Assembly: GCA_964572255.1 (NCBI GenBank)
Contig: CAZNEE010000003.1
Location: 118,539 to 182,538 of the forward strand
DNA length: 64,000 nucleotides
Origin: an uncultured Planctomycetia bacterium
Lineage (GTDB): Bacteria > Omnitrophota > Gorgyraeia > Tantalellales > Tantalellaceae
Direction: 5' to 3'
The position numbers and the translations under genes were made by a program. The notes beneath the pieces were generated by a model. It saw nothing but the letters and a program-made list of their open reading frames with translations. It had not been told where the DNA came from and made no database searches. Positions 1 through 64,000 of this stretch are shown piece after piece (position 1 is the stretch's first letter; the number at the start of each line of letters is the position of its first letter).

Positions 1-3000
1 ATCAAATTCGCGGCTTTGAGTTCCCTGCCTAACAGGAATTTTTCCCCCATCAGCTTCGCCATTTTTACCAGAAAAATATGCATTCTCTCATCCATATCCT
101 CAACTTTTTCTTTGGCGTCCTCATCTACAAGGCCATTGGCCAGATCGTTGATTTCTCCGTTTTTATATGTCCCCGCCAAAACCGCGTTTATTATCTTCGT
201 ATTCCATTCTTTGGAGAGCCAATACTCGAACGCCTTCTTGCAATTCTCAGCTATCAGCAGGAACCACAGGCCTGAAAGAAAAACAAAAGTGCTTAATAAG
301 GCCGGAACCGCGGTCAATGCCCCCGGTATCATAAAAGAAGCCGCTAAGGAGATCACAAGACCCACAACGCCTATAATGAGCGATCTCTCCGACCACCTGT
401 AATAAGTCCCTATAGTTATGCCTTCCTCATATTGATCATATCTTTTTATTATCTCCTTTGCGTCGGCAGGAGAAAGACCGATCCCTGAATCCAAAAATCT
501 CAAAAACATCTTATTCTTGAATTTTGTCTGGTCATTACTGCTCGCAAATATTTTCTGTAACTTCCCGAGAATAAGAGGATTATTCCTTGAATCCTTGAGC
601 ATGTTCAGGAACACACTGAGAGCTTTCAAGGTTTCTTCGCCGGCCTGCTCATTCTTTTCAATATCCTGAATTATGAATTTTATGGCCTCCGGGATGGAAT
701 CCGGATTTTCCCTTCTCAGATCTTCTCTCACGCCCGGATCGAACCTGTTCACGGCGGTATTTGCGATCCTTATTATTGATACCAGCTGCTTCATTTTCTC
801 GGGATTAATTGACGACTGCATACGGATGAGCATCTCATCTTCCTCGACTTTTCTGCAAAATTCCCTGTAAGTGCCGTAATTGAAAAGCAGCATCCTGACA
901 TCTTTCTTTATCTCTTTCGGAAGACTGATATCAGTAGCTTCCAGCATTCTTACCGCAAAAGTGTTCACCCCGAATACTGACCAGACAACTTCTTGTTGTA
1001 ATTTATTAAGTTTCCTGCGGGGTGTTTTCAGTAATTTAGCGATCTCTTTACAAACGCGCTCAAATTGTTCGTCTATAGGAAGCCCCTCAGCGCCTATTTC
1101 TTTGATCAACGCTCTCATCGCTCCCTTTATATGCCATACTTCCCCTTTTTGGGCAGGATATTTTTTCTTAAGCGCGGCTCTGATCTCCAGAAAATCATTC
1201 CTGTGACTTCCCATTCTCGGGCCAAGGCCCAGATGATGCACAAAGATCGCAAGTTTTAAGGTAAGTATGTCCTCGTTCTGGAATTCTTTTTCTTCGGCCA
1301 TCCTTCTTGCCATTTTTTCGGCAAGTTCGGCTTCGAGCAGAACATGCGGATACAGGTCCACTAGCCCGTGACTGTTATATAGTTCCTCTATCTTGTTTAT
1401 TATCCCTTTTCTCACGCCCGAGGGGGCCGCGGGAGCGCTTTTTCTGAGAACACGAGTGTGATCTATGCGTATCTTATCGGTAATATCCTTGTATATCCCC
1501 CTGCTTTCTTCCGTCAGAAGCGTTTTCTGATCAAAAATATTCGCAAACCTTCTTATCCCCAATCTCCCGCCTTTTACCCCGAGGTCCCCGTTCCTAAAAA
1601 CATAAAGGTTGGTTTCTTCCCGCCCGGATATGGCAAATTCCATCTTTCTTAAATTTCCGTAATCCTCGCGCATCTCATGATTTAGATCTTCGTATTCCCA
1701 TTCTCTCAACGAATATCTTGTTTCCATGTCACGGCTTATTTCCCATTCGAACTTCTTTATGGAAGACATGTTCTTATTCAAAAACAACTGCGCCAGATCT
1801 CTTACTTCATCAAGGTTTACACGCGAAACACATGTATATATTTCAACATTTTTATCCTTGCAGTGTTTTTTGACCAGGTCCAGCGCCCGCTCCAGCTTCT
1901 CAGACTTTTTCTGTACCTTGAAAGACACCTTATTCACATATTTGGTCATTTTTGAACTGATTATGTTCCATTTATCCCCCACCTCATCAATATTTTCTAT
2001 AAATCCGGCGAACGAAACAACTACTGTCATTTTCTTACTTGCGTGTCCGAGAAGCTCCTTCAGGGCATCCATCTTTTTCTCATCATCGAGCAATCCTCTT
2101 GATATATCGAAAATGAAATTTACCCTGCTTACGCCTTTTTCGGCCAATAGATCAACCATTTTTATTTCGCTTGCCGGGTCTTCCCTTATACTTGAAAGAT
2201 CAAAATACACGCTGGGCGGCAGCAATCCGGTTCCTTCGGCTTCATAAAAATTTCTTTTTATTTCACCGCATATAGTCCCGAATTTTTCATGCTTCTCACG
2301 AAGAACGTTTATGTTGGAAAATATTCTTTGGATATCATCGAGTTTGAACTTTTTATAATCACCTTTTCTGTAGAACGGCCAGATCCCGCTCATGGCTACA
2401 GGGCCGACTTTTTCCACGCTTTTGGAATCGGTAAAATATTTCGCATGGCCATGCCTTTTCGGAAAAAAGTAAACCGTCGCTCTTTTTTCCTTATTAACCG
2501 TAACGATCTTATCGACAGTGTATCCGTTGTCTCTAAAGATCTCTTCAACGTCATAGCATCTGGTACTCAACAAATTAATATCACCGGTATTATCAACGCG
2601 CCCGTTGACAGCGAAAACGGCAATAGGATTCTCTGTGTCCGGATATCCTTTTACCGTAAATATTACATCATCTCCGTCACGCTCAGTACATAACGGTTCC
2701 AGTTCGTACTTTTTAATAGGAAGCGGATCGTCCAGTTTAAACAGGTGAAAATGCAGATTCTTGGTATTATCGGCAGCCAACTCGTTCGTCCAGGATAGTG
2801 TTTCCCCGGATAAATTCCTTAATATCTCAAACGCGTCACGGTAATGTTCCCTTTCAAATGAGTTCTGCGGGATATTCTCCTGTGTTTCAACCTCTACTTG
2901 CGAGAAAAAGATCCCGTCCTCTTCCAATTTGAAATGATAGCCTCCCCTGTCCCTCTGTTCGGGTGTTTCACTTGTGTTCCTTCTGCGCGCAGGAGTATAT

Positions 3001-6000
3001 TGCTTGGTCAGAAATGTATCGCTGATGTTTTCGCTTTCCCAACGATGTTCCCTGAGTTCCGCTTTTTTGCCCTTTTTGCGCACCTTTTTGCTTATTTTTC
3101 CCCTTAGATCCTGCAGGTCCTTTGCCAAACTTGCAAAATCCCCCTGTTTTATGACTTTCACCTCTGTTTTGAGTCGATTTCTTTTTATCAAACGGGCTAA
3201 AGTATAAAAACCCGGCATCAGGAAAAACATGCCCCAGAATTCTTTTTTAAATAATTCATGGAGTATGATCTTGCTTAGATCTTTTTCGCGGACGATATTC
3301 CTGATAGCGTCATGATACTCAATACTTCCGTCATGCTGTCTTTCAGCTATTGCAGTAATTAAAATCTCATCGCCGGAGAAAGCTTCATCTCCGGGCGTGG
3401 GTGGCACATACCCCCTCAAGGCCATTCTGGCCAATTTTCCCAGGCCTAAAAATCTGCCGGCCGAAACAGCAAAAAAAGCTCCCAAAACGGCGAATCCCGT
3501 CCAAATGCCATAATACAGAACATGTGCTTCCACCATCAATCCTATAAGTATACCGACCAGTGCGCCCGCAAAACTGACCGCGCTCAGCATGGCCATGATC
3601 TTACCCCACAATGAAGCGCTTTCAACGGTGAACGGATGGGCCGGCGGGATCTCCGGAGGATCTTTCTGCCTCTGCGTTTCCATGAATTTTATGTCTTCTG
3701 GAAGAAATTCACTGCAATGACGGGCATAAGCAGCTAAAGATAATAATTGTCCGTCCTTTTCCGATATCAATTTTGCTAAAGCCTCCAAGGCCCTTCTGTC
3801 TTCAATACCTTCTTCGTAATATTTTTTCTCAAGAAACTTGAATGAATCCTCAAAGGATTCAAAAGGTCTTCCTTCATGGAACAAATTCATCTTATCGACA
3901 TTGTTGCCGTTTTCAAAGACATCGGCCGTAAAAAGTATCGTTAACAATAAACCTAACTCTTCGGGAGTAATGGGCAACTTGCCCCTGGAATCATCTTTTG
4001 ACGCGAAAAACTCTGAAGGAAATTGATGGTACTTTATTAAAAGTTCGACTTCCAAAGGCATTTTAACGCCAAGAGACTTTATGTCTTCTGCTGAACGTGT
4101 CCCATGGTCATAAAAATCTCTTGCTACATTTTTCTCCTCACTGGTTAATGCGCCGCCTTTTTTATTCTCAACGAATCTGTAGAAATCACTTATTGAAAAA
4201 AATGCTCTTCTGCCTTCCTTTGAAAGTTTTTTGCCGATATACCTTTTAACGTCATTGACTACCGCTGGGTCGAGAACTTTTCCGTCATGAACTTCCCCGG
4301 CAGCCATTAATATTTCTATCAACCGATCAGACAATCCTATTCTTCTGGCGATCAGCTCCGCCATTCTTGAAGCACGGGCAACATGTTCCATATGAAAATC
4401 TGTCTCTTCCGTTTGGATCGACTCTAAGCATAACTCTAACCGTTGTTCACGGTTCATTTGCATGATATCGTACTTTCCTTTAGCAAAAACAAGAAGTGAT
4501 AGAAACCTGTCTCTTCCCTGAAAGGACCTGATTATGAACTGACCATCTATATTCATCATGGCATCTGCACCGTTATCAAAAATGATCGCATCGGTAATGC
4601 CCATCTTTTCCAATCTTTGCTGCGCTTCTTTGAATGTTATGCCGATCCGGTTCGACTTGCCTTCAACGATTATCGAAACAAGATTTCCATCTTTGTCTAT
4701 AGCGCAAATATTATGGGGGTTTATGCCTCTTTTCAGGCCTATGGTAAGTTCGTTATTATCTTTATCAAGAAAGTAAACGCCGTATTTTACTTCACTTGCC
4801 GCTTCTGCTTTAATATAATGTTTTTCCTCCCGTAAATTCTCATCCAGCTGCTTTATCTGATCATCTGTCAGAGGGGCCTCTCTTTCTTCAAGTTTTAAAG
4901 TAATGAGTTTTTCTTCTATCGCCGGCACAATAAGATCTTTTATTACTTTCCCTGTTTCATCATAGAAATGGCTTACTCCGAAACTGATCTTCCCGTCAGG
5001 TATAAACGGAAAATCAAGATAATGCCTTACGTCATAATCGTGTTCGTAATGCTCGGCTAAATCGTACGGCCGGCCATTCTTAAGGATCCCGATACCGGAA
5101 TTAGTTGATACAACTTCACCTGTTATATCTTTTCCGGTACTCTCTTCTATGATCCTTTCACCTCCAGTAAACCTGACTTCTTCTATGCTGATATGTCCGT
5201 CTTTCCATATTACCAGTGACGGATATACCCGGCTATTACCGCTATAGATCAGCTCTTTTTCAGCTTCAACAGCATGAAGTCTTCCGTCAACATAAGAAGC
5301 GAGATGCGCATTCGCAAGAATGTTACCGTTGCCGGTAAACCCGATTATCTCGAAATTAGGATAGTCTTTTCTGAATTCCTCAAGATGTCTCTCGATATCC
5401 CATACATCTTTCCTGGCATTTTCATAATCCGGAGCTATATCATCAACATCTTGTACCTCTCCGCCCTCTAACTGATATTTAAAATGCATCGTGGCTTTAT
5501 CTCTTAACATTCCCCAGCTTCTTGCCATATTTTTCTGAAAAACCGGATAAGCTCTGGCTTCTGAAGGATCATATTTAGCCACTGCCATACGTGTTTCAGG
5601 GCCGCGTTCACTGGTAAAATCAACAAGCGCAACCGGTAAATGTACTTTCTCGTAAGCTTCATCGGTTATCTCTAATATTTGACCGTACTCATGCAGAGTT
5701 GAGTCTGTTAAAGCACTAACGGCTTCATCCGTCATATATTCACTAATGTTGATGCCGGATCTTTCAAGATCATCTCTTATAAAGGAAAAAGAATCCTTAG
5801 GAGATTCTTTTTCCTTTTCTTCCTCAGCTTTCAGCCTCCTCACTTCAACTCTTCTTAAATAATCCGATCCCATCTCTATTGAATCAACAGCCGTAAAATA
5901 TATATACATTCTTTTTAATAATTTTCTTATTTCAAAATCTCTCTCGTGACCATAACCAAACACCGTCTCATCTATCACATCAAAAGCTTTCTTCTTGTCC

Positions 6001-9000
6001 CTAAAAACGCTTTGCTTAACAGGCTTTTTGTCTTTATCTTGAATGGTAAATTCATCCAAAAGGATCTTTATCTCGGCTGGGACAACTATATTATTACTTG
6101 CAAATATCTGGAGGGTGTTATCCGTCGGTTTTTCAAGCGCAGCCATCTCGGGGCTACCATAAGAGCTTCCGATCGCATGAGCGATAATAAATTTATGGAA
6201 GATATTTTGGAAGTGTTCAAGGTCATCCTGGTTTTCATCTTCCCTTCCAAGCGGCCATATAATATCGAACATCCTGATAAGTCTGGTTATATGGGTTCTG
6301 TTAAGTTCATGGGGAATGATCTCCAAAAGCTCACTGTCATTAATATCCATGATGTTCCGACGCGGTTGTGTCCCCGGTTTCCCTCTCCCCGGCTCACTCA
6401 TATCAACAAATGAAAGACCGCTAAGCAGGGATAACAATAAAAGCGTCCTGGAAGTGCCGCCCGGCAGCATGGCAGCTTTATCGATCGATTTTTCTTTGAC
6501 CTCGTAATATTCCGGATCCGTGAGCCATGACAGCATCCAATTTATCACTTCCGAATTATTTCTCGGATTAACGCCTTCAAATATGGCTATTCTGATAAGC
6601 AAGGATCTGTACTGCTGGGGATATGAGACTCCGATAAGTTCCATCTTGAATGCCTCAAGAAGTTTTCCGTCGGAAGAAGTGAAATTAGCGAGCATTTTAA
6701 AATTACTGTAATGAGGTGATCTGCGGTTGTACGACGCGGCGCAATGCTCGAAATATTCTTTTAAGCCGGAGAAGCCCTTTTGTTCCGCGATATATTTGCG
6801 GTACTCGTTCTGGATCGAATACGCCTCATATTCATTCTGCATCTTCCGCGCAATGAACTTTTTGAAGTCTTCACGAAGTTTTTTGCTTTCATCGGTTTTC
6901 TGTAAAAATTCCGACATCTTTATACCGGCGATTTTTTCGCCCATTTCGATCTCTGCCTGAGCACGTTTGTTCTGATGCGGAAGCATATGAACTATTTCAT
7001 GCACGATGGCCGACTCGATCTCAGGATCTGAATATTCGCCGACGAATGCGGCATTGATCCGAACTATATCACCCCTATTTTCGTCGGTCTGCAGTATATA
7101 GGGCTTAGAGGGGTCATTAACGACTTCCAAACGGGATTTTTTAAACTCATATAATAGTTTGAGAATTTCCTTTGTATGTTTGGAAAAAGTCCAGCCGTCT
7201 TTCTCGATATGATTTATGGCATTACCGGTAAGTTTTAATATCCTCCCTTCAATAGGTGACGGTCCGGCCGGTTCAGCTTCTTTAATTTGTTTTTCGGAAG
7301 TTTTCTTGATTTTTTGCGAAATATCTATTTTTTTATCTTCCGAGCTTTCTTTTGATATCTCGGCAGACGGTTTTACCGGTTCTTGTGATATCGGTCTTTT
7401 CGCAAAATAAAATACCAAAGTTGCGATGATGCTGATCAAAACGAACGCAACCGCCATGACAGCTATTGATATTTTTCCGCTTTCACCGGATCTTTTCTGC
7501 GAAACGTCATAATATTCAGGGTCTGATAACCACTCGAACAGCCAGTTTCCGAAAACTGCCGGATCACTCTTGCCTTCAAGAGCAGCCGCAAAATAAACCG
7601 GTTTTCGCGTCCCGGGTGCGATCGCTTGCTCGAATAGATCTATTTTATATCCCTCAGGTAAAGTCCCCCCCGGATATACTATTGAAAGAAGATTGGCATA
7701 ACCTTCCTTGAAGCCCGGATCATTTGTTTTCGATCCGAGATATTTTAAATACCCTTTTAGATCGGAATAACCTTTCGCCTTTGCCTGTTCGTATCTGTAC
7801 CTGTTCTGTATGCTGTAAGCTTCAAATTCATTATGAGTAGCTACTGCTGCCGCTATTTTTATGCTTGTTGAGATCCTTTTGGTGAATCCGTCAATATTTC
7901 CCGAAAGAACAGCCTTAAAATACCCCAGAAAATTCCGTATGACCCCTAATACCCCTTTATTCCTATGTTTATCAAATGCCTTCTGCCTCTTGACCTGCAC
8001 CTTAAGAAAGTGTACCATCTCATGTAAAAGTATCGCTTCAATATCCTCTTCGGGTATATCCCGCAAAAGAACCGGATTTACTCTTAATTCCCTGTTTTTT
8101 GCCACCGCTTCTGAATGAGCTTCAAAAAGCGCATTTTTTATAGTAGTTTTGCCCGGACTTAAGAACGGATCTTTGATGAAATCCTTAACCAGTTCAAGGA
8201 GTTCCTGGCGGTGTTCAAAATCAGGAAGCCAGCCATCATGTTCAATATGGCCGGCAATATTCCGGGCTGACTGGACAATAACCTCCTGCACATGTTCAGG
8301 AGGGGATCTCTTGGCGCGGTAGATCATATAGATCGCGCCTGTTATTAATATTATAATACCTATATAGAGGACTGCCGGATTGGTAAAGTAAGTTGAGATA
8401 TCACTTTTAACAAAAGGAAAGGCAAATACGCCTAATGCCCCGGCATCAGATGGCCCCGCTCTTTTATCAGGTCCTTCCCCTTCGGGCCCCTGCTCCTTTT
8501 CTTCATCTTCTTTTACCCCCGTCATCGGCGTCACTTTGGACATTTTTTTATTCAGGATGCTGTTGAAAAGTTCCTCCCCTAATATCCTGTTCATTCTTAT
8601 CAGCGCTTTTCCGGTAACTATCTTATTGAGCTCTTCATTTGACTCATCAGTGTTGGATAGTTTAAGGTCTTTAAGCATTTCAGCAACGGTTTCGGCGTCG
8701 GTAAATTCAACTTCAGTCTTGAGTTTGGGGACCAGTCCCTGTATAACGCCGGGTACGATCAAAACTCCGTGCTTTTTGTAAAGGTAAATACTGAATATTA
8801 TCGTCTTATCAAAGCGCGCGTGGTCGCCGCAAATGCTGACATCCAGATCCCTGGCTTTTGCCGCTTTGACTATTTTCTCCAGAATTTTCAGCATTTCATT
8901 GTCAAAATGGCTGTCCTTAAGATCGTGTCTCGGCAGCTTCTTCACATCGGAAGTGAGGTCATTAGAGCCTATACTTAAAAAACTCAGGCTTACGAATTTT

Positions 9001-13412: not shown

Positions 13413-13555
13413 AACTTATTGTTATCCCCATAACATTTATGTACTTTTTAAAGTTATTAGCTAATTCAAAGTGTAAAAGTCCCTTCATGTTTTTCTTACT
13501 TACAGAAAGACATTAAAGAGCTAACAAGCTTTTTATTTATTTAATGACTAATAAT

Positions 13556-13583
13556 ATGTTAACACAATAAAAAGATTTGTCAA
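13556..13583 (-). promoter_or_regulatory. Weak candidate promoter for the 1-13412 gene: TTGACA (13583-13578), a 16-nt spacer, then TAACAT (13561-13556).
   Basis: It lies in an AT-rich spacer ~145 nt upstream of the ATG at 13412. The -10 is poor and no SD precedes the ATG. Confidence 0.2.
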
Positions 13584-13687
13584 TTTGAATATCTAACTAT
13601 TTTGATTCTTAATTATTCGGCTTTATTTTGGGATAATTTTGAAATTTGTTAACAATACTACCTTTTTCAACAATTACATAATCGTCC

Positions 13688-13732
13688 AAAAAAAATAGAA
13701 CGGCCCTGCAGTGTATTCCACGGCAGGGCCGT
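13688..13732 (-). terminator. Putative intrinsic terminator of the 7013-aa gene: a 10-bp GC-rich stem (13700-13709 pairing with 13723-13732), a 13-nt loop, then tcta plus U8 on the minus strand (A8 at 13688-13695 on the plus strand).
   Basis: The plus strand reads aaCGGCCCTGCagtgtattccacgGCAGGGCCGt preceded by aaaaaaaa. It lies ~85 nt downstream of the stop and is the last of three consecutive stem-loops (13763-13797, 13735-13759, 13700-13732). Confidence 0.45.
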
Positions 13733-13816
13733 CTGAGATGCAGGAAGGTTTTGCATCTCAATTCACGTCGCAAAGATTGAGGGGAAGCGGCGTGAACTCT
13801 ATAAGATTTTTATTTA

Positions 13817-34858: not shown

Positions 34859-34870
34859 CCCTCACCTTCC
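34859..34870 (-). promoter_or_regulatory. Shine-Dalgarno site (GGAAGGTGAGGG, core AGGTGA 3 nt before the ATG) for the 7013-aa gene.
   Basis: The plus strand reads ccctcaccttcc immediately 3' of cat (34856-34858). Confidence 0.45.
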
Positions 34871-34928
34871 TGCACCATTAAAATAGGATAAAATTATATC
34901 TAACTTTACTTTATTTTACCCTACTTTA

Positions 34929-34956
34929 AGTATAGCACATAAAGAGCTGCTGTCAA
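34929..34956 (-). promoter_or_regulatory. Sigma70-like promoter for the 7013-aa gene. The -35 is TTGACA (34956-34951), the spacer is 16 nt, and the -10 is TATACT (34934-34929) with an upstream TGn.
   Basis: Minus-strand sequence ...tctcTTGACAgcagctctttatgTGcTATACTtaaag... lies ~70 nt upstream of the ATG at 34858. Confidence 0.4.
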
Positions 34957-35099
34957 GAGAACTAGCAAACTTTTTAAAGATTTTTATTAAGTGGTGAAAG
35001 CTTACTTTTCCCTCTTAACTTAAAAATATAAAATATTATAAATAAAAGACTTACAGGTGGAATCGAAAACGGTAAGATGTTATTTTTTAAAAAGATCAA

Positions 35100-35140
35100 A
35101 TAAAAAACAGGCTACTCTCTCGAGCAGCCTGTTTTTTGCT
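35100..35140 (-). terminator. Putative bidirectional intrinsic terminator after the >=9569-aa gene. A hairpin at 35108-35131 is flanked by an A6 run at 35102-35107 and a T6 run at 35132-35137.
   Basis: The plus strand reads taaaaaaCAGGCTactctctcgAGCAGCCTGttttttg. An imperfect ~12-bp stem is followed by a U-tract when read on either strand. It is the last of four stem-loops downstream of the TAA at 35262. Confidence 0.45.
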
Positions 35141-35256
35141 GGAAGCCAGCAGGTGTGGTAGTGGCTTCCTTTAGCTAGTATTGCATTTCCTGGTGCGGGG
35201 TTTTTCGCCCCGCACCAGTGCTGGAAGCTGGTAGGTGTCTGGCAGCTTCCATAAAA
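35139..35256. repeat. Cluster of three GC-rich hairpins directly 3' of the >=9569-aa gene stop. Two are copies of one ~30-nt hairpin element: ctGGAAGCCAgcaggtgtggtagTGGCTTCC at 35139-35170 and ctGGAAGCTGgtaggtgtctggCAGCTTCC at 35221-35250. They flank CTGGTGCGGGGtttttcgCCCCGCACCAG at 35190-35218.
   Basis: I read the inverted repeats directly. The two 8-bp stems are perfect and the central stem is 11 bp. Confidence 0.55.
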
Positions 35257-35261
35257 ATCCG

Positions 35262-53200: not shown

Positions 53201-56200
53201 TGGCTTTCTCGGCGCCTTTCAGCACGTCATTTACCATATCGGTCTTAACTTCGCCTCGATTAATACTATTAAGAATTTTGCTTCTTGCAGTATCATCCAT
53301 GCCCACAAGCGCCATGAAGATTCCGAACCCGTTCGCTTCCATATTCATATCAAGACCGGCTTTATTGGCACCGTTTATCACCTGGTTTATCTGCACATCG
53401 GTCACCTTGCCGGATTCTATGACACTTAACATGTCGGAACGCGCTTCCGCACTCATACCGGAAAGCGCCATGAATACCTGGAAGTCGCCAACCGTTACAC
53501 CGACCTTTTCTGCCCCGCTTATAACAGTACTTATATTTTCTTTAGTTATGCCCAATTGCCCGGTATCTGCCTTAAAAACGAAATCGAACCTTGCCTTTTC
53601 ATCCATACCTGCAAGCGCCATGAATACTCCGAAATCATCAGCAATCACTCCGACTTTAGCTGCAGCCCCTTGAATCATCTCGACATAAATGCCCATTTTT
53701 GAAGTGCCTCTTCCGATCACCTCGCCGTCTATCACTATATCCTTCGCGGGTTCTAACTTGCTGATCTTACTCAAAAGATCTCCCCTGGCTTTGTCATCCA
53801 TGCCTATTATTGCCGTAAATGCTTGGAACCCGCTGATATCCAGTTTTGCGTCGCTGGTTCCCTTGAGTATGACCCCGATATCCGCCGCGGTTACCTTGCC
53901 GGCCTTAACATTGGCCAAAGTACCCGCGCGATCTTTATCGCTCATGTTGGAGAGCCATGAAACGATCTGTATATCCGAAACACCTTCACCGGTAATTCCT
54001 TCAACGCTGTCTCTTATGGGACTGATGAACTCGCTTCCTACCACGCCGAGGTTTCCGCTGTAGAATTTGCCTTCATTTTCTCCCTTACCTATTAATACGG
54101 TTCTGGGATTATAAAGCGCATCCAGCCCCCCCATGAAAGTCCAAACAGCATTGCCCGCACTGTCGGTAAGCACTGTGGAATCCACTGCGCCTGCCTGATT
54201 GGCCAGCGTTTTAGCTAATGCCGTCTCTTCAGCGCTTAGATCATCTGCATAAGTAACTTTGGCCTGGCTTACTATCGCCCTGAAAGTGTCGCCCATGTGA
54301 TCCACTGTGGTTACCTGTCTATCAAACCCGAAATTGACCAGGTGCTTGCCTTCGCCTTCTCCGCTGTAAATATCATTGGATGCGATATCATGGATCCCTC
54401 CTGCGGGAAGTTCGCTGAATCTTGCTCTTCCGCCTACAAAATGCACAACACCTGACTGTACATTCATCTTCTTCAGCCATCCCTCAACCATCGCTTTGTC
54501 ATTGCCAAGCAAACCTTTCAGGTCTATATTGGTTTCCCGCATCAAAGTCTGCACATTAAATCCGTTGAGGGTGAGTTTGCCCATCTTATTGTTATTTATT
54601 TCAAATGCGAACTTTTTGTCTCCCACATTTAGCTCAATGGATTGCGTCGTCAAAACCTGACCTAAAGAGCTGATGCCCCAGATCTTTGTCGTGGATTTCC
54701 CGACCACTTGCCCATCTATCTTTATGTCTTGCGGAGGCGTTTCTATTGCTGCACCACCAGCCAGTTTAAGGCTTCTTCCGCCGTCCTGGACGGTGAGTTT
54801 ATATTCTGTGCCTTTGACATTAATGGCAAATTGCTGTTTTCCGCCCAATAGATTTTCTTCGGTAAAGAGGACTTCTCCGTTCACCACATTTATAGTCACA
54901 TTTATAGTCACACTTTCACCGGGAATATGACCGGGAAGTATAACTTTTATTGACGCTATTGCCGGGCCGGAATCTGTAAATACCGGAGTCGTCCTTCCGC
55001 CTTCAATACCCGAAAGGTTCTTAAAGACTACGGCGCGTCCCGTGACAGCATGACGCACTTTTGTTCCGTCCGGGAAGATCGGCGTGCCTGCTTCATCAAA
55101 ATCTACCGTCACACTATCCTGATCGACTATATAACCTCCCGCTCCAGTTCCTCTCATGAAAGTAATATTATTTCCAGTTAGTACCAGGCTGTTCCCTATG
55201 AACCAGGCATGCCCGTTTTCTCCGATAGTAACGCCGTAAAATCCGCCCGCGGCCAAGCTGACTGTCAAATTCTGGGAAAGTTTTCCTCTTGGCAGTCCTG
55301 CACCCGCAGCGCCCTCCCCGGACATATTTATTGCCTGATCGGATGGGGTATGTAACAGATCTCTATCTGAAGCTGTGATCCTTCCAATAGCCGAGCTCAT
55401 TCCATATTCATCTATTTGTATGCCCCAGATCTCCGCATCAACATTCGCAATGCCCCCGCCGGCCGCGTCAAAAGTGGTTCTGGTCTTATAAGCCGCTCTA
55501 TCCGCCACAAGCTGTGTTACATTCCCTGAAACTGTGAATTTCATGCCGTTAATAGTAACGATCGAGCCGTCTCTTAATTCATCGCCCATCTGGTCCTTAA
55601 GGCTCTTAAATACAGAGTAAAGCAGTGCTCCGGATATTGCTTCATCAAAGGTGAGCGATATATCAACAACGTCTTTTACCGCGAAACTCTCGATCTCGCC
55701 TCTTAAAGCCGTAACTGCCGCCTGGAGTGCGCTCACTTCAGCTTCCGGCATCCTCTCCACGACGCCGCCGATTAACTCCCAATCATCAAAAGCAGCTGCC
55801 AGTTCCGTAGCCGCTTCTGATACATATTTACCTTGCGCACTGTACTCAGAAATTCTGGCCGAAAACTTCGCTGCTATTTCACCAAACTCTTTATTGATGC
55901 CGATAAAAGTTTTCTGTCCGAGTTCTGTCTTGGCAAGAGCATCCATGCCGAACAGCTCAACCATATTACTCATGAAATCCAGCCTGTATTGGTCTCGGTC
56001 AAATCCGGAAATACGCTCACCGGTTTTTGCGTCAAATGTTGCCACTTGATCACCTTCGGGTTCAAAATAAGAACTTAAGAAAGCTGTTTCTATGACATTA
56101 ATGCCTTGTAATTTTTCCGATTCAAATTGAAGGCTATTAGCCTTTGCGAAATTAGCCTCAAGGTTCTGCCCGAAAGCCAAAACGGCAACGCCTATCATCT

Positions 56201-59200
56201 GCAATGCATCCGGCTGGTCTTTGAACGCATTCATGAACCCGGTTTTCTTACCGATTGACGATGAGACCAGGCCGAGCCATCCGCCCAGCATCCTGAACTT
56301 GCCGTCATCATTGAAACCGCCGACCGAGATCAAATTAAGGAATGAATCGATGAACTTGCTGTCCGCCATTATGATCTCGAGTGCGTTCCTTGCGGTAATA
56401 TTCTTAAAATCTATGTTCTTGCCGACATATTCGTAGCTGGTCTTTATCTCCAGCATGGTGAACTCATTAAGGCCAGCAGCGCCGGCTTTATTAAGCAATT
56501 TGATATGCGCGCCTGAGAGAGCCGCGAATACATCGCCTGCCCCTTTAAGGCCTCTTAAATTATCAGATAGATACATCATGGAGCCCGCGATCATTGTCGC
56601 CATATCTCCGACTTTAAACTCACCTATGTGGCCTTTGAGTTTACCAAAATCCATGTCCATCAATGCTTCGACCGCGCCTACATATTTCAGCGCCACCATC
56701 CTTGTCATCACACCTTTGGCAATAGCCAAACTGAGGCCCGCTTCGGTCTTTTGCACGGCATTCTGGAAACTCGACTCTATCATCGCCAAAAGTCCACTGG
56801 ATATCTCTTCGCCGTTGGATAAGCCGGCTAAAATGGAATTGTTTACGCTTACAAGATTGGAATTAAGACCTCGCTGCGTATCGAAATAACCTTCGAGAAC
56901 TGAAGCGAATTGATCTTTTGTAAGGCCGCTCTTTCCTGCAATCTGCAGGATATTCCAGTTATTCGCCATGAGATTGTCCATCGTAGATATAGCCTTTTCA
57001 GCAACCTTACCGGTAAAAGAATTATTATTCTTTGCCTGCAGGATAGACTGTACTACATTGTTCCCGGCATTCTTTATAATGCCTTGTGCGGTTTTGATCA
57101 ATGCGACATTCCTGGGATCAGCCCTGACAATGTCTTCGGCAACGTCACCGATCTGATTATATATACCCAAAGCTAATTCGGTATTGCCTTCAGTTGCGTT
57201 CAACGCCTGAGCGAATAACGCCTGTGATAAATATTTGCCGAGCGCGTCCGCTCTTTCCGCGCCGGTCATCTCAATAGTCCCGCCTAATAGAGCCTGAACA
57301 TCTCTTTCTGTAGACAGCAATGCATTTGTGATTAATGTTGCGACCCAGCCGCCAAGAGCATCGACCTGCTGACCAAACCACTGTGCTGCCTGTGTAGAAA
57401 CCATTTCTAACCCTTTTTCTATAAGACCGGCAAACTTCATCCCCCATTCACCAAGGTTTCTCAGAAACATCGCGGCCTTGACTTCCGTAGGCGCCGCCTT
57501 TAATCTCAATTCTGTCCTGTATTGCTCGATCGTCTGGCCCGTTCTTGCAAGATGTTCTTCAACTCTGCGCTCTGCTATCGCTTCCATGATCTTCGGAGCT
57601 GAAAGTATAGTGGCAAACGCGCCGGCAAACTTGCCTGACCATATATCAAGCATTCTCTGGAAAGCTGTCTTCTCGGAAGATTCCTTATATGCCGCTTCGT
57701 GCCACTCTTCATCCTCGCCAAGTGAAAAATCGGCAAACAGTTCATACATCCGTTTAGTAATATACCTTTCCAAGCCCACTTTTGCGGCGGCAGTAAGAAG
57801 CATCAGAAACGGCGTTGCCGCTTTAGGTGCCATCGCAGCCATTTCAGGCCGATCGGGTTCACTTAATAATTGTCTCGTCTGGTCCGCCTGTGTTACAAAT
57901 GTGGTTACAAATGTGCCCCATACCAGGCTCCAAACGGCTATCTGCTCGTCATTCAAGCCCCAATCTTCGCCAAGGGTGGAGATTATTGACGTACCGATCT
58001 TGCTTAATGCATAAGCTGTTGCCCCGACTGTGAATTGTGTCGTGCCATATACCCCGAAATACTGACCTCCGGCAGATTGTATTGCTTGCCCTCCGGAACT
58101 TGCCAGAAGTTTATCTGTTGCAGTTTCAGGTGGCTTCGGGGAGTCTCCTAGCGCAGTCTCCAAAGCCGAAAGTATTGACTGGAACCCCAGACTGAAGGCG
58201 ACCATGCCTAACGCCTCATAGAAATCCTGTGCGCTTATTCCCAGGAATCCTTCTCTATCACTCATATCCTCGGCTTCACGTAAGAGCCACCTGCCGAGAG
58301 ATATGAAGGCAAGCCCTACTATGACCCTGAAAAGAACTTTTGCTGTTGTTGAAGTTATGGTGAAAAATTTCTCGATCGCCGCTAACTTGTCGGTGAACCA
58401 GCCGCCGATCCAGGAGAGGAGTATAGAGTTAAGTATTCCCTGGTACCACAATCTGAAGGCGGTGGCGTGGTCCATGCCGAACCAGGCGGTATTTATCTCC
58501 ATCCTTACAAGCTCGACTGCGGCGGTCACCATGGCTGTCGCCCAAAGGGCTGCCAGAGCTGTTGTCGCGGCACCCGCAGTATATATAACAAGTACTACTT
58601 CTATGACTGTAAGAAGTATCTGGATGAACTGCATGAAGCCTTTTCCGGTCACCCATTCCTTCTCCCAGAGGGTCTTGATGTCTTTCCTTAAGAGCACGCC
58701 CGTTATGCCGTAGAAGAAGAACTCTCTTTCCAGGCTCTTGGATTTGGCCGTCATCTTCCGGCTTACTCTCTGCTTGGAATATGTATATACGGTCTGGCTT
58801 AATGTATCGCCGAAGGCGTTGTATTCAATGTCTGACAATACCCGCAAAGTCTTGATCTTGTCGCCAAGCGCCTTGGTAGGATTCTGGCTAATATACGAAT
58901 ATATTGAACCAAACAAACCATAAGTACTCTCCGCCAGCCCGGCATAATATTCTGCAAGTTCCGAAAGGTTGCTATATCCCCTGTTTTCCCATTTATCCAC
59001 TTTTTCATAAGTAATGCTGTATGTGGTGTACCCTTTTACGCGGCCGAACATGTCATATTGATAATCATAGGCCCATGTTATCTGACCCCATTCATCGATG
59101 GTCGTTTGTTTTTCAAGCCTTCCGAACTCATCGTACTTGCTGTATTCAATTTCGACCGTTTCTTCGGTATCGGTCTCGACTTTGCCGCTTTCCTTGACGG

Positions 59201-62200
59201 TTTCCTCTTTTGTTATGGTGGTCGTTTCCCTGATAATAGCATTACCGAAGGCATCATAAAGAATGGTCTTCGTCCTGATGGTCTCTGTTATGAACTTGAT
59301 CTCGCCGTCATCGCCTCTTTCGATGCGGGTGGATGTTATGAGGCTTTCGATCGGTCGGTTATTCTGGTCATACGCGACAACCTGGGCGATCTCTATCTCT
59401 GACGTCACGGAATCGCCTATCGTATATGAGAACCAGCTTACGGGGTTATTGCTCTCATCATATAATGTGCTCTTCTGGACAGTGGTATTTGTGCTCCTTC
59501 TGGCAAGCGGGATCTTTACATTCCCGATCTCCATGCCCAGAGGATCAAAGCCTACATCCCTTGAAACTTCTACAAAATCCTGTTTATTGCCGTTCGTATC
59601 ATAAACAATGTCCGAAACCTTGGCAATGGAAGTAAGCCCCGTTATTCCCGCCAGCTCTTCTTCCCCGGCCCACTGCTCCGTCCAAAGCATGTCTTCGCTC
59701 ATATCCGTGTAGCTCTTGATATTGCCGCTCTTATCATCGTATACAGTGCTCAACCTTTCGGTGTAAGAGCCCGTTAAGTACCTGTCATCCTCCGGTATCT
59801 GGGCTTTTACAAGATCCGGAAGATCTTCTATATTAGAAGGGGTCACGGTTATATCTTTGTTCACGGTGATGTTAGTCTGCTTATAACCTATATTGTGATC
59901 GGATGAATCATATGCCATGTCCTCCATTATAAGGACATCTTTTGTGGGCACCCATTCATAATAATAAGACGAGCTGCTGCCTTCCGCGGATTTGATGCGT
60001 CTGATATATTCACTATGAGGTCCATCGGGACCACCATAAAATACCAGGTCACCCTGCTGTTGATATCCCTGAACTCTTGACATGACATCGTAAGAGACAT
60101 TAATGCGTTCTTCCTGAGCATAGCGGATCATTTCATTGTTCGCATCAATACCGGGCAGGTTCTCGGGATAATCATCATCTCCAAAATCCAGCCCGATCCA
60201 TCCGTCCTCATGCCTCACAGTGGTATGAGCATCCGCCCACTGGGATTCCTTCTCATCTTTAGTGTAAGTTTCCCACCCTGTCATCCTTCCAAATTCGTCA
60301 AACACAACATCTCTTTGTATGTATGTCTCCTGCCGCCAGGTCGGATATTCAACCAGCCACTCGCTGCCTCCATGCAGGTTAACGGCATTGTCATTTAAAT
60401 GATGTTCATTTACCGCATTGCTATAGGTAAGCGGTCCGATCGTATCTTCGGCCCAGAAAAGAAGCGCAGGCTGAAATCCATCAGTAACAGGATCAATATC
60501 AGCGATGAATTTGTTTTCGTAGAAATGTCCGAACTTGGTCGTGATCTTCCGGAAACTGGCCCACTCATTAAGAGAATCGTATTCTATATCGCTGTGGTTA
60601 GGTGTGATGCCAAGAATACCGCCAACCGTAGTAACAGTTATGAAATCATCATACCGCTCGACCCGATCCCTGGTCGGACTGTACCTTTCAAGATCTTTTG
60701 TCTCCGTAACGGTGTAGCCAGCAAGCCTGCCAAGATCGTCTACCCTGCCGTCCTGTTCGCTGGTCACTGTAACGTATTCACGATCATTGCCCGTAAGCAT
60801 CATATCCATAAGGCCGATAGTTGTGACAAAGTTCCCGTTTTTATAGCTGTATGAAGACATGTCCACCATCTGGCCGAGGCTGTCGTACACCAAGCCTTCC
60901 AGTCTAGTGTATTCTTCATTGAGTATACCGGTAATGATCGCCATCCTAAGGCCGATATCAAATCCCGGCAGTGTTATATCATCGGAGCTTCCCTGACGCG
61001 TTAATGTGCCGTTTGTCATTAAATTACCGAAGGAATCGTAAGAGGCCATGCGTGAATATTGTGTTTGCAAGTCAGTTAATGGTGCAATAATATCAATATC
61101 GTCAAGCGGAGGAGGAAGGGGCAAAGTGATAATATAAGTTAAATTTTCCTTCTTTGTTACGTCTGTTCTTAAAGCCCGGCCTGAAGGTGCGATAACATTT
61201 GTCTGTTGTAAATATGTACCTCCATAATTCATCGGCACGCCTTGTGAATCTTGACGGGAATGATCTGAATCTATTCCCCTCTTCCACTGATCTAAAGTAA
61301 CAGTTTTAAATCCGCTGTCATTTTCAATTACACTATAAAACTGTACATCAATAACGCTGGCATCCCATATCCCATTATATAAATGGGTGCCGTAAGCATA
61401 AGCGCCGGACTCAAACCATTGTTTTAAACGCTCCAGCTCGGCATCATCGGTCAGATCATATTCTGTAAGAAGATAATAATCTAACGGCCTGTTTGTCTCC
61501 ATTTGGAAGATCTTCTGGCCGTTTTCGTCATAAACAATATAGCTGCTGTAATTTTCGCCCCTTACCGGAATATCCACTATGACCAAGGTCTTTGTAGGAT
61601 CAGCTTGCGCGCCGGACCATTTTTGTATATTTGCAAGGGAAGACAAATTAACGCTTCCGTCAAAGTTAGTTTCACACACTCCTGTAACAATATCAGTTGT
61701 ATCGCTGACCTCAACATTGTAATTAACGTAGCCGGAGTTCTCCGTAAGTGTATTTGTCGTGCTTTCCCAGTTTCTTTGGGCCGTGCCCGCAAGAGCGGTA
61801 TCCACCAGCTGGCTTGCTATTTCGGCATTGGTAAATACCCCTGAACTTGCAATGATCACGGGGTCGCCTGTACGAAGGTCGGTAAGCTCCCCCCTGGCGC
61901 CGGTCTGCCTTATCGATATGGAACGGACATCGCCGAAAGAGTCGATGCGCTGGAGCATCATGGCAGATCGATCATCGTAGCCTATATGCGAAAGACTTAT
62001 CTCCTTATCATAAAAATATTCATCTGTCGTATTGGCCTGATCCGTGAATACATCGTGCAGGACCCCGTCACCGGAAGAGTTCTGATAAACGATGCCGCCT
62101 TTATTATTAACCGTTACAGGATTCCAGATGTTCCCCGAGGGTTCAAAAGTCTTATCGGCATATACCACATGTGATGTCTCTCCATTAGGAAGTTCAATAG

Positions 62201-64000
62201 CCTTGGTAAGTCTTAATCGAACATCACCGCCGGTTCCGGCAAGAATATATGCGCTGTACTCCTGGCCAAAAAGATTTATTACACCGAAATTATCAGGGTC
62301 ATAATCATAGTTCCATCCCCATGTTCCGCCGTAGCCAAAGGGATCCGGCCAAAATACATTTACCCCGTAATACACTGCATTACTGAAATCGACCGTTACA
62401 ACTTCTGTTCCGTAAGTGAACACCCATCTTGGGTAATCGTTGCTGCCGTAAGTCTGAAAATCGACCTGATACGTGCTTGGAAAGAATCCAAAAATACTGT
62501 CTTCATCATAAAACGTATGCAGTTGAAGTCTTTCATAATCATCGGGGTAATCAGAGATATACTCGATCTCGCCGGTTATTATGTCATTATCGCTTGAATC
62601 TTTTACTCCTATGACATTTCCGTCATCATCGAAATCAAATTCATAACCTTGCGCGGAAAATTCAACCAGTTTCGCGAATTCAAGCTCGATGTTATGGGCG
62701 TTCTCAAGTATCACGACATCGCCCGTACTGTTTTCGGTAATTATGGGGTCGGTATTAAATGTTATTGATCTGCCTGTCCCCCAATCTACCTCTATTTCAA
62801 CAGAGGAGGTATAAAAATTATCATCCTCGTATGTATTGCGTTCAAGGATCCTTGCATCGTGCCTTATCCCGCCTCCGCCTCCCGCAACTACAAAATTACT
62901 TCCGGTAGCAGGCCTGTCCACCTGATAACGAAGCATATCGGGACCGTTGCCTTTAAAATCTTCTCCCGGATCCGAATCATCGTTGAAGTTATAATACATT
63001 CTTAAGTCCTCTTCGCCGAAATCAACGCCATTCTCAAATTCATCCTCAGCCCTGCCTCCCGGGATAAAACCGGAGTCGCTGGTATAGAAAGCAACCTCGC
63101 CTAAAATACCTTCAAACGCCTGACCGCCTTCAAATCCGCCGCCCACGCTATCCTGGTCCTGTCCGAATACAAGCGTACCGCCGTTATTGATCAAAGCCCC
63201 TGTTTTAAATCTGCCTCCGTATTCCTTTATACCATCCACGTAAACTTCCAGATTATCCCAATCCGGAACCGTAGTGTTCCACCACCTTACCATTACGTGG
63301 TGCCATTGGCCGTCATTGACATCCACGCCCGTATCTCTTGAATCATTATCAATATGGATCCTCAAGTTATTACTATTATAGATCAGAAATTCATTGGTAT
63401 GGCCCGGTACAGCATAAGAGATTATGCCGTCACTACTGTCAGTGGTCTTGATCCAGAACGAACAGTCTAAGTTCCTTATGCCATTTTCTCCAGGCGTCGG
63501 CGGGGATGAATCGAAGAAGCAATCAACTGAACCGTCTGAAATAGCATAGCTGTCCACAGTCCCGTTAAACCCGAATCCTTTTTCAGGTACGCGCGCTCCT
63601 CCCCATGTCACCAAGGTAGGATAGCCATACTTTGTCAGCAGATAATGGCCCTGAAGAGCGGGATTATCTCCTTGATATTCCCTGCCGGCGGAATACGGAT
63701 CCCATCTCCAGGTGTTCAGGTAGTCGGTAAACTCTTTAAAAGTCGCGTTAGCTTCCTCGGGACCTGAAACATAGAAAACATAGTCCTGGCCTGAAAGCTC
63801 GTCAGTGATCGTGTATCTGAAATTACCTTTATATTTACCGCTTGTTATATTCTTTATCTTGGCGGTCGCCAGTGAAGTGCCGTCATTGGCGATGAACTCA
63901 TAAGGCACTCCCGTCATCCTGTCCAAGTCAGTATTAGTAGATGTAGGATAGATGATGCGGTTACCGTGCACATCATATAGTGTGGTTAAAAAAGCGCCTG
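35262..64000 (-). CDS. Giant protein of at least 9569 aa with a probably partial 5' end. Order of parts: pentraxin/LamG-like lectin domain, YD/RHS-like repeats, TM region, beta-rich adhesin-like region, ~18 tandem 50-aa repeats, hydrophobic Gly/Ala-rich blocks, coiled coils, embedded SecA-like ATPase, C-terminal TM region.
   Basis: ORF track gives 9569 aa from a GTG at 63971-63969. I translated 63972-64000 on the minus strand (..[18 protein letters not shown]..) and found no stop. The frame is therefore open to the window edge, and the real start is probably beyond 64000. The TAA stop is at 35262-35264. Confidence 0.85.
   Translation of the reverse strand, partial: [9578 protein letters not shown]
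40300..42660 (-). other. SecA-like preprotein-translocase ATPase module (NBD1, PPXD-like insert, NBD2, helical scaffold) embedded in the >=9569-aa ORF.
   Basis: Motif-level matches to canonical SecA. Walker A is ELLTGEGKS (coding at ~42325-42340), against [29 protein letters not shown] matches ITYGTNNEYGFDYLRDN. Walker B is [19 protein letters not shown], against [59 protein letters not shown] matches [45 protein letters not shown] matches [18 protein letters not shown] matches [40 protein letters not shown] (coding at ~40660-40720) matches [28 protein letters not shown]. Confidence 0.75.
47200..48700 (-). other. Gly/Ala-rich hydrophobic multi-helix block of the >=9569-aa ORF.
   Basis: The translation reads [71 protein letters not shown] and [30 protein letters not shown] and [26 protein letters not shown]. 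The antisense ORF 48004-48651 is A/V/L-rich as expected. Confidence 0.5.
51100..53930 (-). repeat. Coding tandem repeat array: about 18 imperfect units of ~48-52 aa (DNA period ~150 bp), consensus [43 protein letters not shown].
   Basis: The plus strand shows a recurring core, catgccggcaagcgccatgaatacctggaa, at ~51500, 51661, 51830, 51960, 52130, 52250, 52420, 52590, 52730, 52875, 53010, 53150, 53300, 53455, 53610 and 53800. In the protein, [45 protein letters not shown] and so on continue to [13 protein letters not shown]. Antisense plus-strand ORFs at 51379-54063 show the mirror repeat MPASAMNTWKP. Confidence 0.85.
58300..58720 (-). other. First TM cluster of the >=9569-aa ORF, immediately after the YD-repeat region.
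   Basis: The translation reads [44 protein letters not shown], then [14 protein letters not shown], then [19 protein letters not shown]. Confidence 0.55.
58800..62600 (-). other. YD/RHS-like repeat region, a putative beta-shell.
   Basis: Many YDxxG(N/R) repeats fall between residues ~450 and 1720: [72 protein letters not shown]. A DPLGM motif ([13 protein letters not shown]) also occurs mid-region. Confidence 0.5.
63070..63620 (-). other. Pentraxin / Laminin-G (ConA-like lectin) domain at the N-terminus of the >=9569-aa ORF.
   Basis: Residues ~120-300 read [127 protein letters not shown]. The GQDQDSxGGGF..F.G.lgEV core matches the pentraxin/LamG_3 signature; human CRP and SAP have LGQEQDSFGGNF..SFVGEIGD. 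The GQWHHV residues are coded at 63311-63294. Confidence 0.55.

Follow-up and report, generated by a model that had tools for sequence, protein, structure and literature searches.

Three consecutive giant genes on an Omnitrophota contig, two of which share an N-terminal head module

The 64,000 nucleotides analysed here (hereafter the window: positions 118,539 to 182,538 of contig CAZNEE010000003.1, from an uncultured Planctomycetia bacterium) carry on their minus strand three giant genes, which we call G1, G2 and G3 and which are intact, adjacent, co-directional and separated by real boundaries. Judged from its sequence, G3 is a member of the published SecA_DEAD class of giants of the phylum Omnitrophota, and it adjoins two genes, G1 and G2, of a family defined by a common N-terminal module, the head. 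We consider it rather probable that these are three independent giant genes, G3 of the SecA class and G1 and G2 of the head family, encoding membrane-anchored extracytoplasmic multi-enzyme proteins that serve the interaction with a host or a prey.

Translation of the window gives three stop-free frames on the minus strand and no frame longer than 284 amino acids (aa) on the plus strand. The frame of G1 (window 3-13415; 4,471 aa) is cut at its C-terminus by the window start; from its ATG at 13412-13410 the gene covers 3..13412 and encodes at least 4,470 aa. G2 is complete: within its frame (13820-34861), the ATG lies at 34858 and the gene, 13817..34858, encodes 7,013 aa. The frame of G3 (35265-63998; 9,578 aa) is still open at the window end, its N-terminus lying beyond it, and the gene (35262..63998) encodes at least 9,578 aa. 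All coordinates given below for these genes are those of the window, and all features lie on its minus strand. The original prediction of three consecutive co-directional giant open reading frames (ORFs) filling this strand, with a giant ORF cut at each window edge, is thus borne out. The guanine-cytosine (GC) content by codon position follows the order position 1 > position 3 > position 2 in every 3-kb block of G1, G2 and G3, and this constant periodicity indicates that the three are real coding sequences rather than chance open frames. GC skew is negative throughout the window, and the GC content of the genes is 0.42, 0.48 and 0.46, with a range of 0.42-0.50 within genes. The exact protein encoded by G2 is on record in NCBI, JGI, ENA and Logan, the longest contig reaching 261 kb. 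Tandem Repeats Finder detected no meaningful nucleotide repeats in the window, and Rfam and tRNA scans of it returned no matches. A Shine-Dalgarno-like AGGTGA stands 4 nt 5' of the G2 ATG, unlike the ATG of G1, which has no such sequence ahead of it. Besides, a direct repeat, GTTATGGGGATAA, is present twice at 13400-13437, right at the G1 start codon; the ATG of its first copy meets a stop after 12 codons.

The spacers, announced as short and of about 400 bp, measure 404 bp between G2 and G1 (13413..13816; GC content 0.31) and 403 bp between G3 and G2 (34859..35261; GC content 0.37). Both hold 5 to 15 stop codons in every frame, which rules out a single gene split by a frameshift. Each spacer opens with three hairpins followed by a U-run, and folds with a minimum free energy of -53.7 kcal/mol (z -7.8 against dinucleotide shuffles) for G2/G1 and of -65.8 kcal/mol (z -7.7) for G3/G2. 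In the former the three-hairpin terminator region extends over about 13688-13800, with a main stem at 13730-13702 and a T-run; in the latter the terminator lies at 35137-35102, a 16-bp stem with flanking A and T runs. Each spacer also contains a promoter-like site: TTGACA-16-TG-TAACAT at 13583-13556 (10 of 12 matches) and TTGACA-16-TG-TATACT at 34956-34929 (11 of 12 matches). Shuffled sequence contains at least as many such sites per spacer; the two are credible because the same type of site recurs in related loci. Taken together, these elements make it very probable that a separate terminator and a separate sigma-70-type promoter serve each gene, which agrees with the proposal that the genes are adjacent but separately transcribed. 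The stem 3' of G3 is perfect over its 16 bp, stands between A6 and T6 and could act bidirectionally; the plus strand facing it at 35102-35137 encodes nothing.

G1 and G2 are homologous at their N-terminus (36-39% identity over about 650 aa, residues 40-691 of G2; phmmer E 1e-50 to 1e-64), and their homology is confined to these first 650 or so residues. Thus, of the architecture supposed to be common to the three proteins, the N-terminal domain shared by two of them holds, whereas a single plan for all three does not. The head of G1 covers residues 5-604 (11604..13403); it is paralogous to that of G2, which covers residues 36-690 approximately and, with its anchor, spans 32789..34744. The predicted N-terminal hydrophobic anchor is found in both proteins, at residues 9-27 of G1 (13335..13391; hydropathy 1.61, RR before, HQQIxW after) and 44-62 of G2 (RRR before); in G1 the segment could serve as a signal peptide or as a signal anchor. 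Next to the hydrophobic segment comes the motif F[LF]HQQI[GV]W, which all across the head family is conserved. As arginines (RR in G1, RRR in G2) flank this segment on its N-side and a net-negative sequence comes after it, the positive-inside rule predicts that the head faces the periplasm.

A search with the head confirmed 169 loci in species-representative genomes; the counts below are from the 79 listed. Relatives in genome contigs are at most 54% identical. A search of proteins gave 52 hits, none longer than 1,105 aa, and the parent of the query was not among them. Almost all of the 79 listed loci and the 52 protein hits are from Candidatus Omnitrophota or Omnitrophica, the rest being chiefly ENA 'Planctomycetia' bins, and on these sequence affinities the locus of G1, G2 and G3 is of Omnitrophota origin. 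The head is N-terminal in 79 loci out of 79, starting at most 104 codons from the upstream stop, and the ORFs that carry it almost always stay open up to the locus boundary, with lengths above 3,900 aa when enough flank is available. When a profile was run against 1.84 billion cluster representatives, 9,892 matched at E <= 1e-3 and 6,798 at E <= 1e-30; the best 150 of the 9,892 matches are all N-terminal. Family members reach 7,834 aa, many of them being cut by contig ends. In three loci (L024:12859-14511, L038:15553-21591 and L056:6353-11800) short head ORFs of 971-2,084 aa continue in an overlapping other frame, probably by indel errors or frameshifts in metagenome-assembled genomes. Such frame-broken ORFs imply that public annotation underestimates the lengths of the family.

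An AlphaFold2 model of the head, built from a 54-sequence alignment, is of high confidence (pLDDT 88.8, pTM 0.84). Its fold-level matches are Bcr135/Bcr136 (2rad, 2qgm), HopBA1 (5t09), EreC (6xcq), a TraB-family protein (8bqs_DQ) and ChaN (2g5g), and the fold is also that of RRSP: in the model, the core of the head is a TIKI/TraB/erythromycin-esterase-like alpha/beta fold with a central parallel sheet. Counting residues from window 34744 in G2, D79-x-H81 (after strand 1), E109 (after strand 2) and H477, the latter within GGxHxxG (GG-H477-G480), are invariant in the 44-51 sequences concerned; E146, E163, R271, R449 and N456 are further invariant residues. The spacing of 28 between His81 and Glu109 is the same in Bcr135 and RRSP, where H85/E113 and H3902/E3930 respectively belong to the '2His/2Glu' catalytic set of the TIKI superfamily (PMC6254334). 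The head differs from the TIKI, TraB-PrgY-GumN, ChaN and Ere proteins, including the MARTX effector RRSP and the effector HopBA1, in that an Asp replaces the first Glu of this motif, in that an inserted helical bundle of about 300 aa separates the two halves of the fold, and in that it sits on proteins of up to about 8,000 aa. PF04187 (ChaN/Tiki) gives weak hits in 4 of 54 family members (best E 0.007, under the gathering score). Altogether, the residue set and the model suggest hydrolase activity for the head, as a protease or an esterase, at the outer face of the inner membrane.

Behind the head, G1 carries several enzyme-like modules. Scanning G1-G3 with Pfam in 27 overlapping tiles of 1,000 aa (E <= 0.01), a check advised beforehand, confirmed SecA_DEAD, PEP-utilizers_C and SprT-like domains and added NAGPA and pentaxin/LamG. 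The first module of G1, residues 1150-1605 approximately (8601..9968), resembles enzyme I of the phosphotransferase system (PTS), with a phospho-His-like segment and a phosphoenolpyruvate (PEP)-binding TIM barrel. Its Pfam core, PEP-utilizers_C, occupies residues 1310-1537 (8805-9488; PF02896, E 7e-30, 104.7 bits against a cut-off of 22.8). The C-domain of enzyme I in the PDB matches at E 1e-15, with RTEY, RTFD, SNDLT and CGD aligned, and the His-containing segment ..SMREHVAILA.. is present. The module corresponds to the C-terminal two thirds of a PTS enzyme-I-like module: it matches TIGR01417 at profile positions 175-508 only (94 bits against a cut-off of 342), PF00391 was not detected in G1, and a complete enzyme I, with an HPr-binding N-domain and a phospho-His domain, was not found there. 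Two SprT-like zincin units follow, at residues 1698-2013 (7377..8324; PF10263 E 5e-9, HEMVH at residue 1798) and 2044-2347 (6375..7286; HEIVH at residue 2139). They form a duplication of about 300 aa (29% identity; phmmer 1e-12 to 1e-22), and unit 1 is followed by a transmembrane (TM) segment at residues 1984-2002. A NAGPA-like phosphodiester glycosidase segment lies at residues 2890-2965 (4521..4748; PF09992, E 8e-9, 36.3 bits against a cut-off of 25). The HD domain fails: its match (E 0.0047) scores 17.6 bits, below the cut-off of 22, and there is no HD dyad in residues 3043-3260. No PDB sequence matches the NAGPA/HD region of G1. Among the embedded enzymes first put forward, the SecA-like, PEP-utilizing and zincin ones were thus recovered and the HD one was not, the match being sub-threshold and devoid of an H..HD motif. 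Nor are they 'whole' housekeeping enzymes: what is present is the motor domains of SecA and the C-terminal two thirds of an enzyme-I-like module, both scoring far under the NCBIfam equivalog cut-offs.

The body of G2 contains a tandem duplication of a unit of about 690 aa (residues 2263-2958 and 2934-3633; 23963..28075), the two copies being 47% identical over 690 aa with phmmer E values down to 6e-82; the unit has no match in Pfam or the PDB. A TM-rich block of about 7 hydrophobic segments occupies residues 5417-5851 approximately (17309..18613), and homologous blocks are found in L010, L054 and P0065. No tile of G2 has a Pfam hit, and its body of about 6,000-6,300 aa has no PDB sequence match. 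G2 ends with a C-terminal tail (residues 6724-7013; 13823..14692), made of a helical linker and a Rossmann-like alpha/beta domain with the end ..YEEVIIRL.

We looked for this tail in 184 family proteins, i.e. the 150 best search matches and 34 others. It is found in 33 of them, each time within the C-terminal 280 residues or so; all strong matches but one end at most 9 residues from the C-terminus, and weaker, partial ones end 74-221 residues from it. In 6 loci, too, giant ORFs terminate in a homologue of the tail (about 290 aa of G2). Complete proteins, from head to tail, range from 1,021 aa (P0022) to the 7,013 aa of G2. P0022, from a 50-kb contig of Candidatus Omnitrophota, comprises a head (residues 1-700 approximately), a tail (789-1021) and little else, which suggests head and tail as the functional core, into which the body is inserted as cargo. 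The tail was considered as a HAD phosphatase, and this was ruled out by a weak Z and by the lack of a DxD nucleophile motif. Searches with the C-terminal 672 aa of G1 and with the G2 tail returned no protein matches, which is uninformative as the search appears blind to giants. Between the two ends, body segments of G1 and G2 are shared with few loci or proteins, at differing positions and in differing orders: since homology collapses beyond the head and segments are reordered, the bodies are mosaics of shuffled modules.

G3 carries a pentaxin/LamG (concanavalin-like lectin) domain at residues 173-306 (63081..63482; PF00354 E 3e-15, PF13385 E 4e-11); scanning metagenome contigs with its residues 1-400 gave only distant LamG matches. 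At least 16 tandem copies of a repeat of about 48 aa (46-59 aa; consensus ..GFQVFMALAGMDDxxRxxxLxxIxxGKVTxxDVxxVIxGA..) cover residues 3456-4255 approximately (51234..53633), with no Pfam match and no tandem at the nucleotide level. The SecA-like DEAD motor, with both nucleotide-binding domains (NBD1 and NBD2), lies at residues 7126-7790 approximately (40629..42623; PF07517 E 1e-34, PF21090 E 2e-13) and matches SecA of the PDB at E 2e-34. Like SecA, it aligns to NBD1 and NBD2 and keeps the Walker A (GEGKS), DEAD-type (DEID) and GRGTD and RGRTGREG motifs, including the arginine finger. Unlike SecA, it scores 4-5 times under equivalog cut-offs (189 bits against 862 for NF006630), it stands about 7,100 residues into a giant protein with TM segments on both sides, and PF07517 and PF21090 are the only SecA domains detected in G3, with no hit for the preprotein-binding (SecA_PP_bind) or scaffold/wing (SecA_SW) families. 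Among the three proteins, Pfam tiles detect such a divergent motor, lacking scaffold and wing, in G3 and in neither G1 nor G2. The translocation module foreseen in the locus is therefore confirmed as to its ATPase motifs, and the literature likewise reads the domain as a self-export module. No segment shared by G3 with the 184 family proteins or the 79 related loci was detected, and the idea that its C-terminus is a divergent tail was ruled out (hidden Markov model E 1.4; hhalign probability 0.2%).

Hydropathy (Kyte-Doolittle >= 1.8) reveals 6, 15 and 9 TM-like segments in G1, G2 and G3 respectively, plus the N-terminal segment of G1 at 1.6. The many TM blocks initially noticed are thus retrieved, and these sequence data support a membrane association of the three proteins. 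The internal tandem repeats noticed at the same time are real too (690 aa in G2, about 300 aa in G1, at least 16 copies in G3), all at the protein level only.

The locus can be compared with the giants published for Omnitrophota, which are episymbiotic or predatory (West-Roberts et al. 2023, bioRxiv 10.1101/2023.11.21.568195; Nielsen & Lui 2026, bioRxiv 10.64898/2026.06.07.730766). West-Roberts et al. described proteins of up to 85,804 aa with numerous TM regions and with divergent SecA DEAD domains, preceded by TM anchors and devoid of scaffold and wing, for which they suggested a role in exporting the giant itself; they also reported N-terminal C39 or S8 peptidases, proposed that giants undergo processing by peptidases, and pointed out embedded domains with implausible predicted localisations. 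According to Nielsen & Lui, 94% of complete genomes encode a protein of at least 10,000 aa (median 2 per genome), 94% of the long proteins have TM helices or a signal peptide, and 20 proteins form a PF07517 (SecA_DEAD) architecture cluster; they distinguished 'multi-enzyme' and 'tandem-repeat' architectures, with repeats of the protein not reflected in nucleotide tandems, predicted a 'multi-enzyme' giant to be secreted and membrane-anchored, and found type II secretion system (T2SS)/pilus and glycoside-hydrolase genes as neighbours. Clusters of this kind had been called rare and largely uncharacterised at first sight; this does not stand, as giants are published as common in Omnitrophota and the SecA_DEAD architecture is a recognised cluster. 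G1, G2 and G3 resemble these proteins by their phylum, their very long TM-rich ORFs, their embedded enzymes, the large Pfam-dark part of their sequence, their repeats without nucleotide tandems, the secretion/pilus genes near related loci and, for G3, the divergent motor without scaffold or wing. They differ by their length, which within the window is below the published cut-offs of 30,000 or 10,000 aa, and by the N-terminus of G1 and G2, a TIKI-like head and not a C39 or S8 peptidase. Neither Archaeovorin markers (glycosyltransferase, glycoside hydrolase, methyltransferase, NUDIX) nor dockerin nor TSP3 were found in the 27 tiles.

The array itself is not peculiar to this contig. In at least 22 related loci another giant ORF of the same strand ends 200-600 bp upstream of the head gene; these upstream ORFs run off the locus, and several end in the tail module. 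A TTGACA-16/17-TG-TAnnnT site (at least 10 of 12 matches) is present in 16 of the 22 inter-giant spacers, and about half of the 22 begin with strongly structured RNA. The survey of neighbouring genomes for syntenic giant genes, suggested at the outset, thus shows that tandem arrays recur, and by these sequence criteria such genomes regularly carry giant genes in tandem, each with its own promoter. Where the two Omnitrophota papers mention giant genes lying side by side, it is solely as an assembly artefact. Outside the phylum, PMC12863079 describes Giant1-5 of Apilactobacillus kunkeei, five consecutive genes for surface proteins of 3,000-8,000 aa; as here, a small genome carries a tandem co-directional array of giant genes, and their sizes are similar, but the array is in Firmicutes and for extracellular surface proteins which are not polytopic membrane proteins, and homology with them is not expected.

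In 14 loci the first head gene has an OEP-MFP-RND-RND efflux operon of the same orientation immediately upstream of it (L003, L005, L008, L009, L018 at 97-9628, L026, L035, L038, L043, L046, L065, L069, L072 and L073). The operon is made up of a TolC-like outer-membrane efflux protein (OEP), a HlyD-type membrane fusion protein (MFP) and two AcrB-like RND pumps, and as the RND proteins are 45-72% identical across loci this synteny spans divergent genomes. Genes downstream of tail-terminated giants (L014:9653-11821, L028:16429-20743) are of two kinds: a T2SS-E/MshE-type ATPase fused to a response-regulator receiver, and lipid-A genes, namely a KdtA-LpxK fusion and an LpxL-like acyltransferase. 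Like the efflux operon, these genes are related to the cell envelope, in keeping with a membrane-anchored role of the giants.

Putting these elements together, G1-G3 would be inserted in the cytoplasmic membrane through an N-terminal signal and internal TM segments, and the motor of G3 might help to thread its own extracytoplasmic segments through the membrane. Members of the head family would follow a single plan: a HQQIxW signal or anchor, a head of about 600 aa, a body of about 0.1-6 thousand residues and, in complete members, a tail. The head, if the residues and the model are read correctly, could be an active hydrolase serving all family members. The most economical guess, by analogy with the N-terminal C39/S8 peptidases, is that it takes part in the maturation or processing of the polyprotein. 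Enzyme modules would then be displayed or released at the cell surface toward the envelopes of host or prey, as the literature proposes, where lectin-like, glycosidase-like and zincin modules may act on envelope or host-surface polymers. By contrast, the single giant envelope-spanning machine imagined for the locus finds no echo here: G1-G3 look paralogous in kind, independently transcribed and modular, and not like subunits of one complex.

Several observations weigh against the reading of G1-G3 as extracytoplasmic multi-enzyme proteins. The catalytic equivalence of the head is deduced from motif order, spacing and fold-level hits, and none of the TraB_PrgY_gumN, Cofac_haem_bdg and Erythro_esteras families matches either protein at E <= 5, be it G1 or G2. 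The fold of the tail is generic and no function follows from it. The body of G2 has no detectable homology to anything annotated, so that an 'effector' role for it is a guess. If the head lies outside, the PEP module would as well, as no TM segment intervenes before residue 1681 of G1; the positive-inside rule thus places it where PEP is unavailable, so that either this topology or the activity assumed for the module is wrong. The energy coupling first attributed to the PEP-utilising module likewise conflicts with this simplest topology, in which an N-in anchor leaves the module outside.

It could be imagined that the proteins are effector-delivery polyproteins that operate in the manner of MARTX or polymorphic toxins. 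The chassis for export, processing or anchoring would consist of head and tail, and the body would be a cargo cut free, by the TIKI-like head or by embedded zincins, and delivered to host or prey. MARTX toxins are likewise very large, with conserved terminal regions, shuffled interior modules and a TIKI-fold domain. The conserved ends and mosaic interior of the head family, with the same modules placed differently among paralogues, fit this idea, as do P0022, which is essentially head and tail, the fold that the head has in common with RRSP, an effector protease of MARTX, and with HopBA1, a type III effector, the processing peptidases proposed for other Omnitrophota giants and the episymbiotic or predatory lifestyle. 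On the other hand, Pfam scans of G1-G3 detected no RTX/MARTX repeats and no cysteine protease autoprocessing domain (CPD), nor were toxin domains or immunity genes detected. The many internal TM segments of the head family, a difference from MARTX, argue for retention in the membrane of the producer, and the conserved neighbours are an RND pump and parts of T2SS or type IV pili rather than type I secretion genes, which were not detected. We hold this possibility to be unlikely. We are equally reserved about a broader proposal, namely that a head-body-tail chassis exports, processes and presents or releases shuffled enzyme and adhesion modules to host or prey, in a family absent from the searched literature. 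By analogy, this family of about 10,000 clusters at 50% identity would be a membrane-anchored counterpart of the MARTX/polymorphic-toxin logic, encoded in individually promoted tandem arrays, with a tripartite RND pump often found right upstream of their first gene.

A second alternative turns the topology around: the proteins would be membrane-tethered but cytoplasmic multi-enzyme scaffolds, the head, the PEP module and the SecA-like ATPase working on intracellular substrates. The PEP and ATPase modules, whose catalytic motifs are intact, depend on the PEP and ATP of the cytoplasm, the head of G1 and its PEP module have no TM segment between them, and erythromycin esterases are cytoplasmic enzymes. 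At the opposite, TIKI, TraB/PrgY and ChaN domains typically lie outside the cytoplasm on a membrane tether, the RR or RRR followed by net-negative sequence predicts an N-in orientation with the head outside, and the LamG lectin-like and NAGPA-like glycosidase modules fit an extracellular role. Nielsen & Lui dropped a reading of this sort for their largest protein after topology prediction. An intracellular scaffold appears to us improbable, and somewhat more so than effector delivery.

Errors of assembly might also have broken one larger gene, or fewer genes, into three ORFs. West-Roberts et al. documented one such case, and the frameshift-split head ORFs of L024, L038 and L056 are others within the family. 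For G1-G3 this is very improbable: the ORFs are separated by AT-rich spacers of about 400 bp with their stops, terminators and promoters, both G1 and G2 begin with a module that is N-terminal wherever it was listed, G2 terminates in a module that is C-terminal wherever detected, and its sequence is identical in four sources. That the array is the artefact of a chimeric or collapsed-repeat assembly, an idea which the metagenomic origin of the contig and the somewhat varying GC content of the genes might inspire, is scarcely credible given the absence of nucleotide repeats able to mislead an assembler, the uniform strand, GC skew and codon pattern, and the head-after-giant order with similar spacers in at least 22 independent assemblies.

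The reading as three independent membrane-anchored giants thus joins what is already known, the giant TM-rich SecA_DEAD proteins of Omnitrophota, to what is added here: the head-body-tail family, its TIKI-fold head, the tandem arrays and the linkage with RND pumps, which we did not find in the text of the two dedicated papers. A full-text search of both for the terms TIKI, erythromycin (esterase), efflux and AcrB gave no mention, TraB has 0 occurrences in either, and RND was searched, without result, in the 2023 text only.

Giant proteins are a signature of Omnitrophota, a ubiquitous phylum of ultra-small bacteria. Surveys that start at 10,000-30,000 aa and rely on Pfam miss the more numerous head/tail class of 1,000-8,000 aa. 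Unlike the giants, the head is compact (about 600 aa), confidently foldable and provided with clear residues to mutate, which makes it expressible and testable. Head and tail may also serve as clean markers to separate genuine gene ends from breaks of the assembly, to count paralogues per genome and to follow the shuffling of bodies. If the head is truly a processing protease, this would bear on the question raised by West-Roberts et al., whether the giants act whole or as cleaved products.

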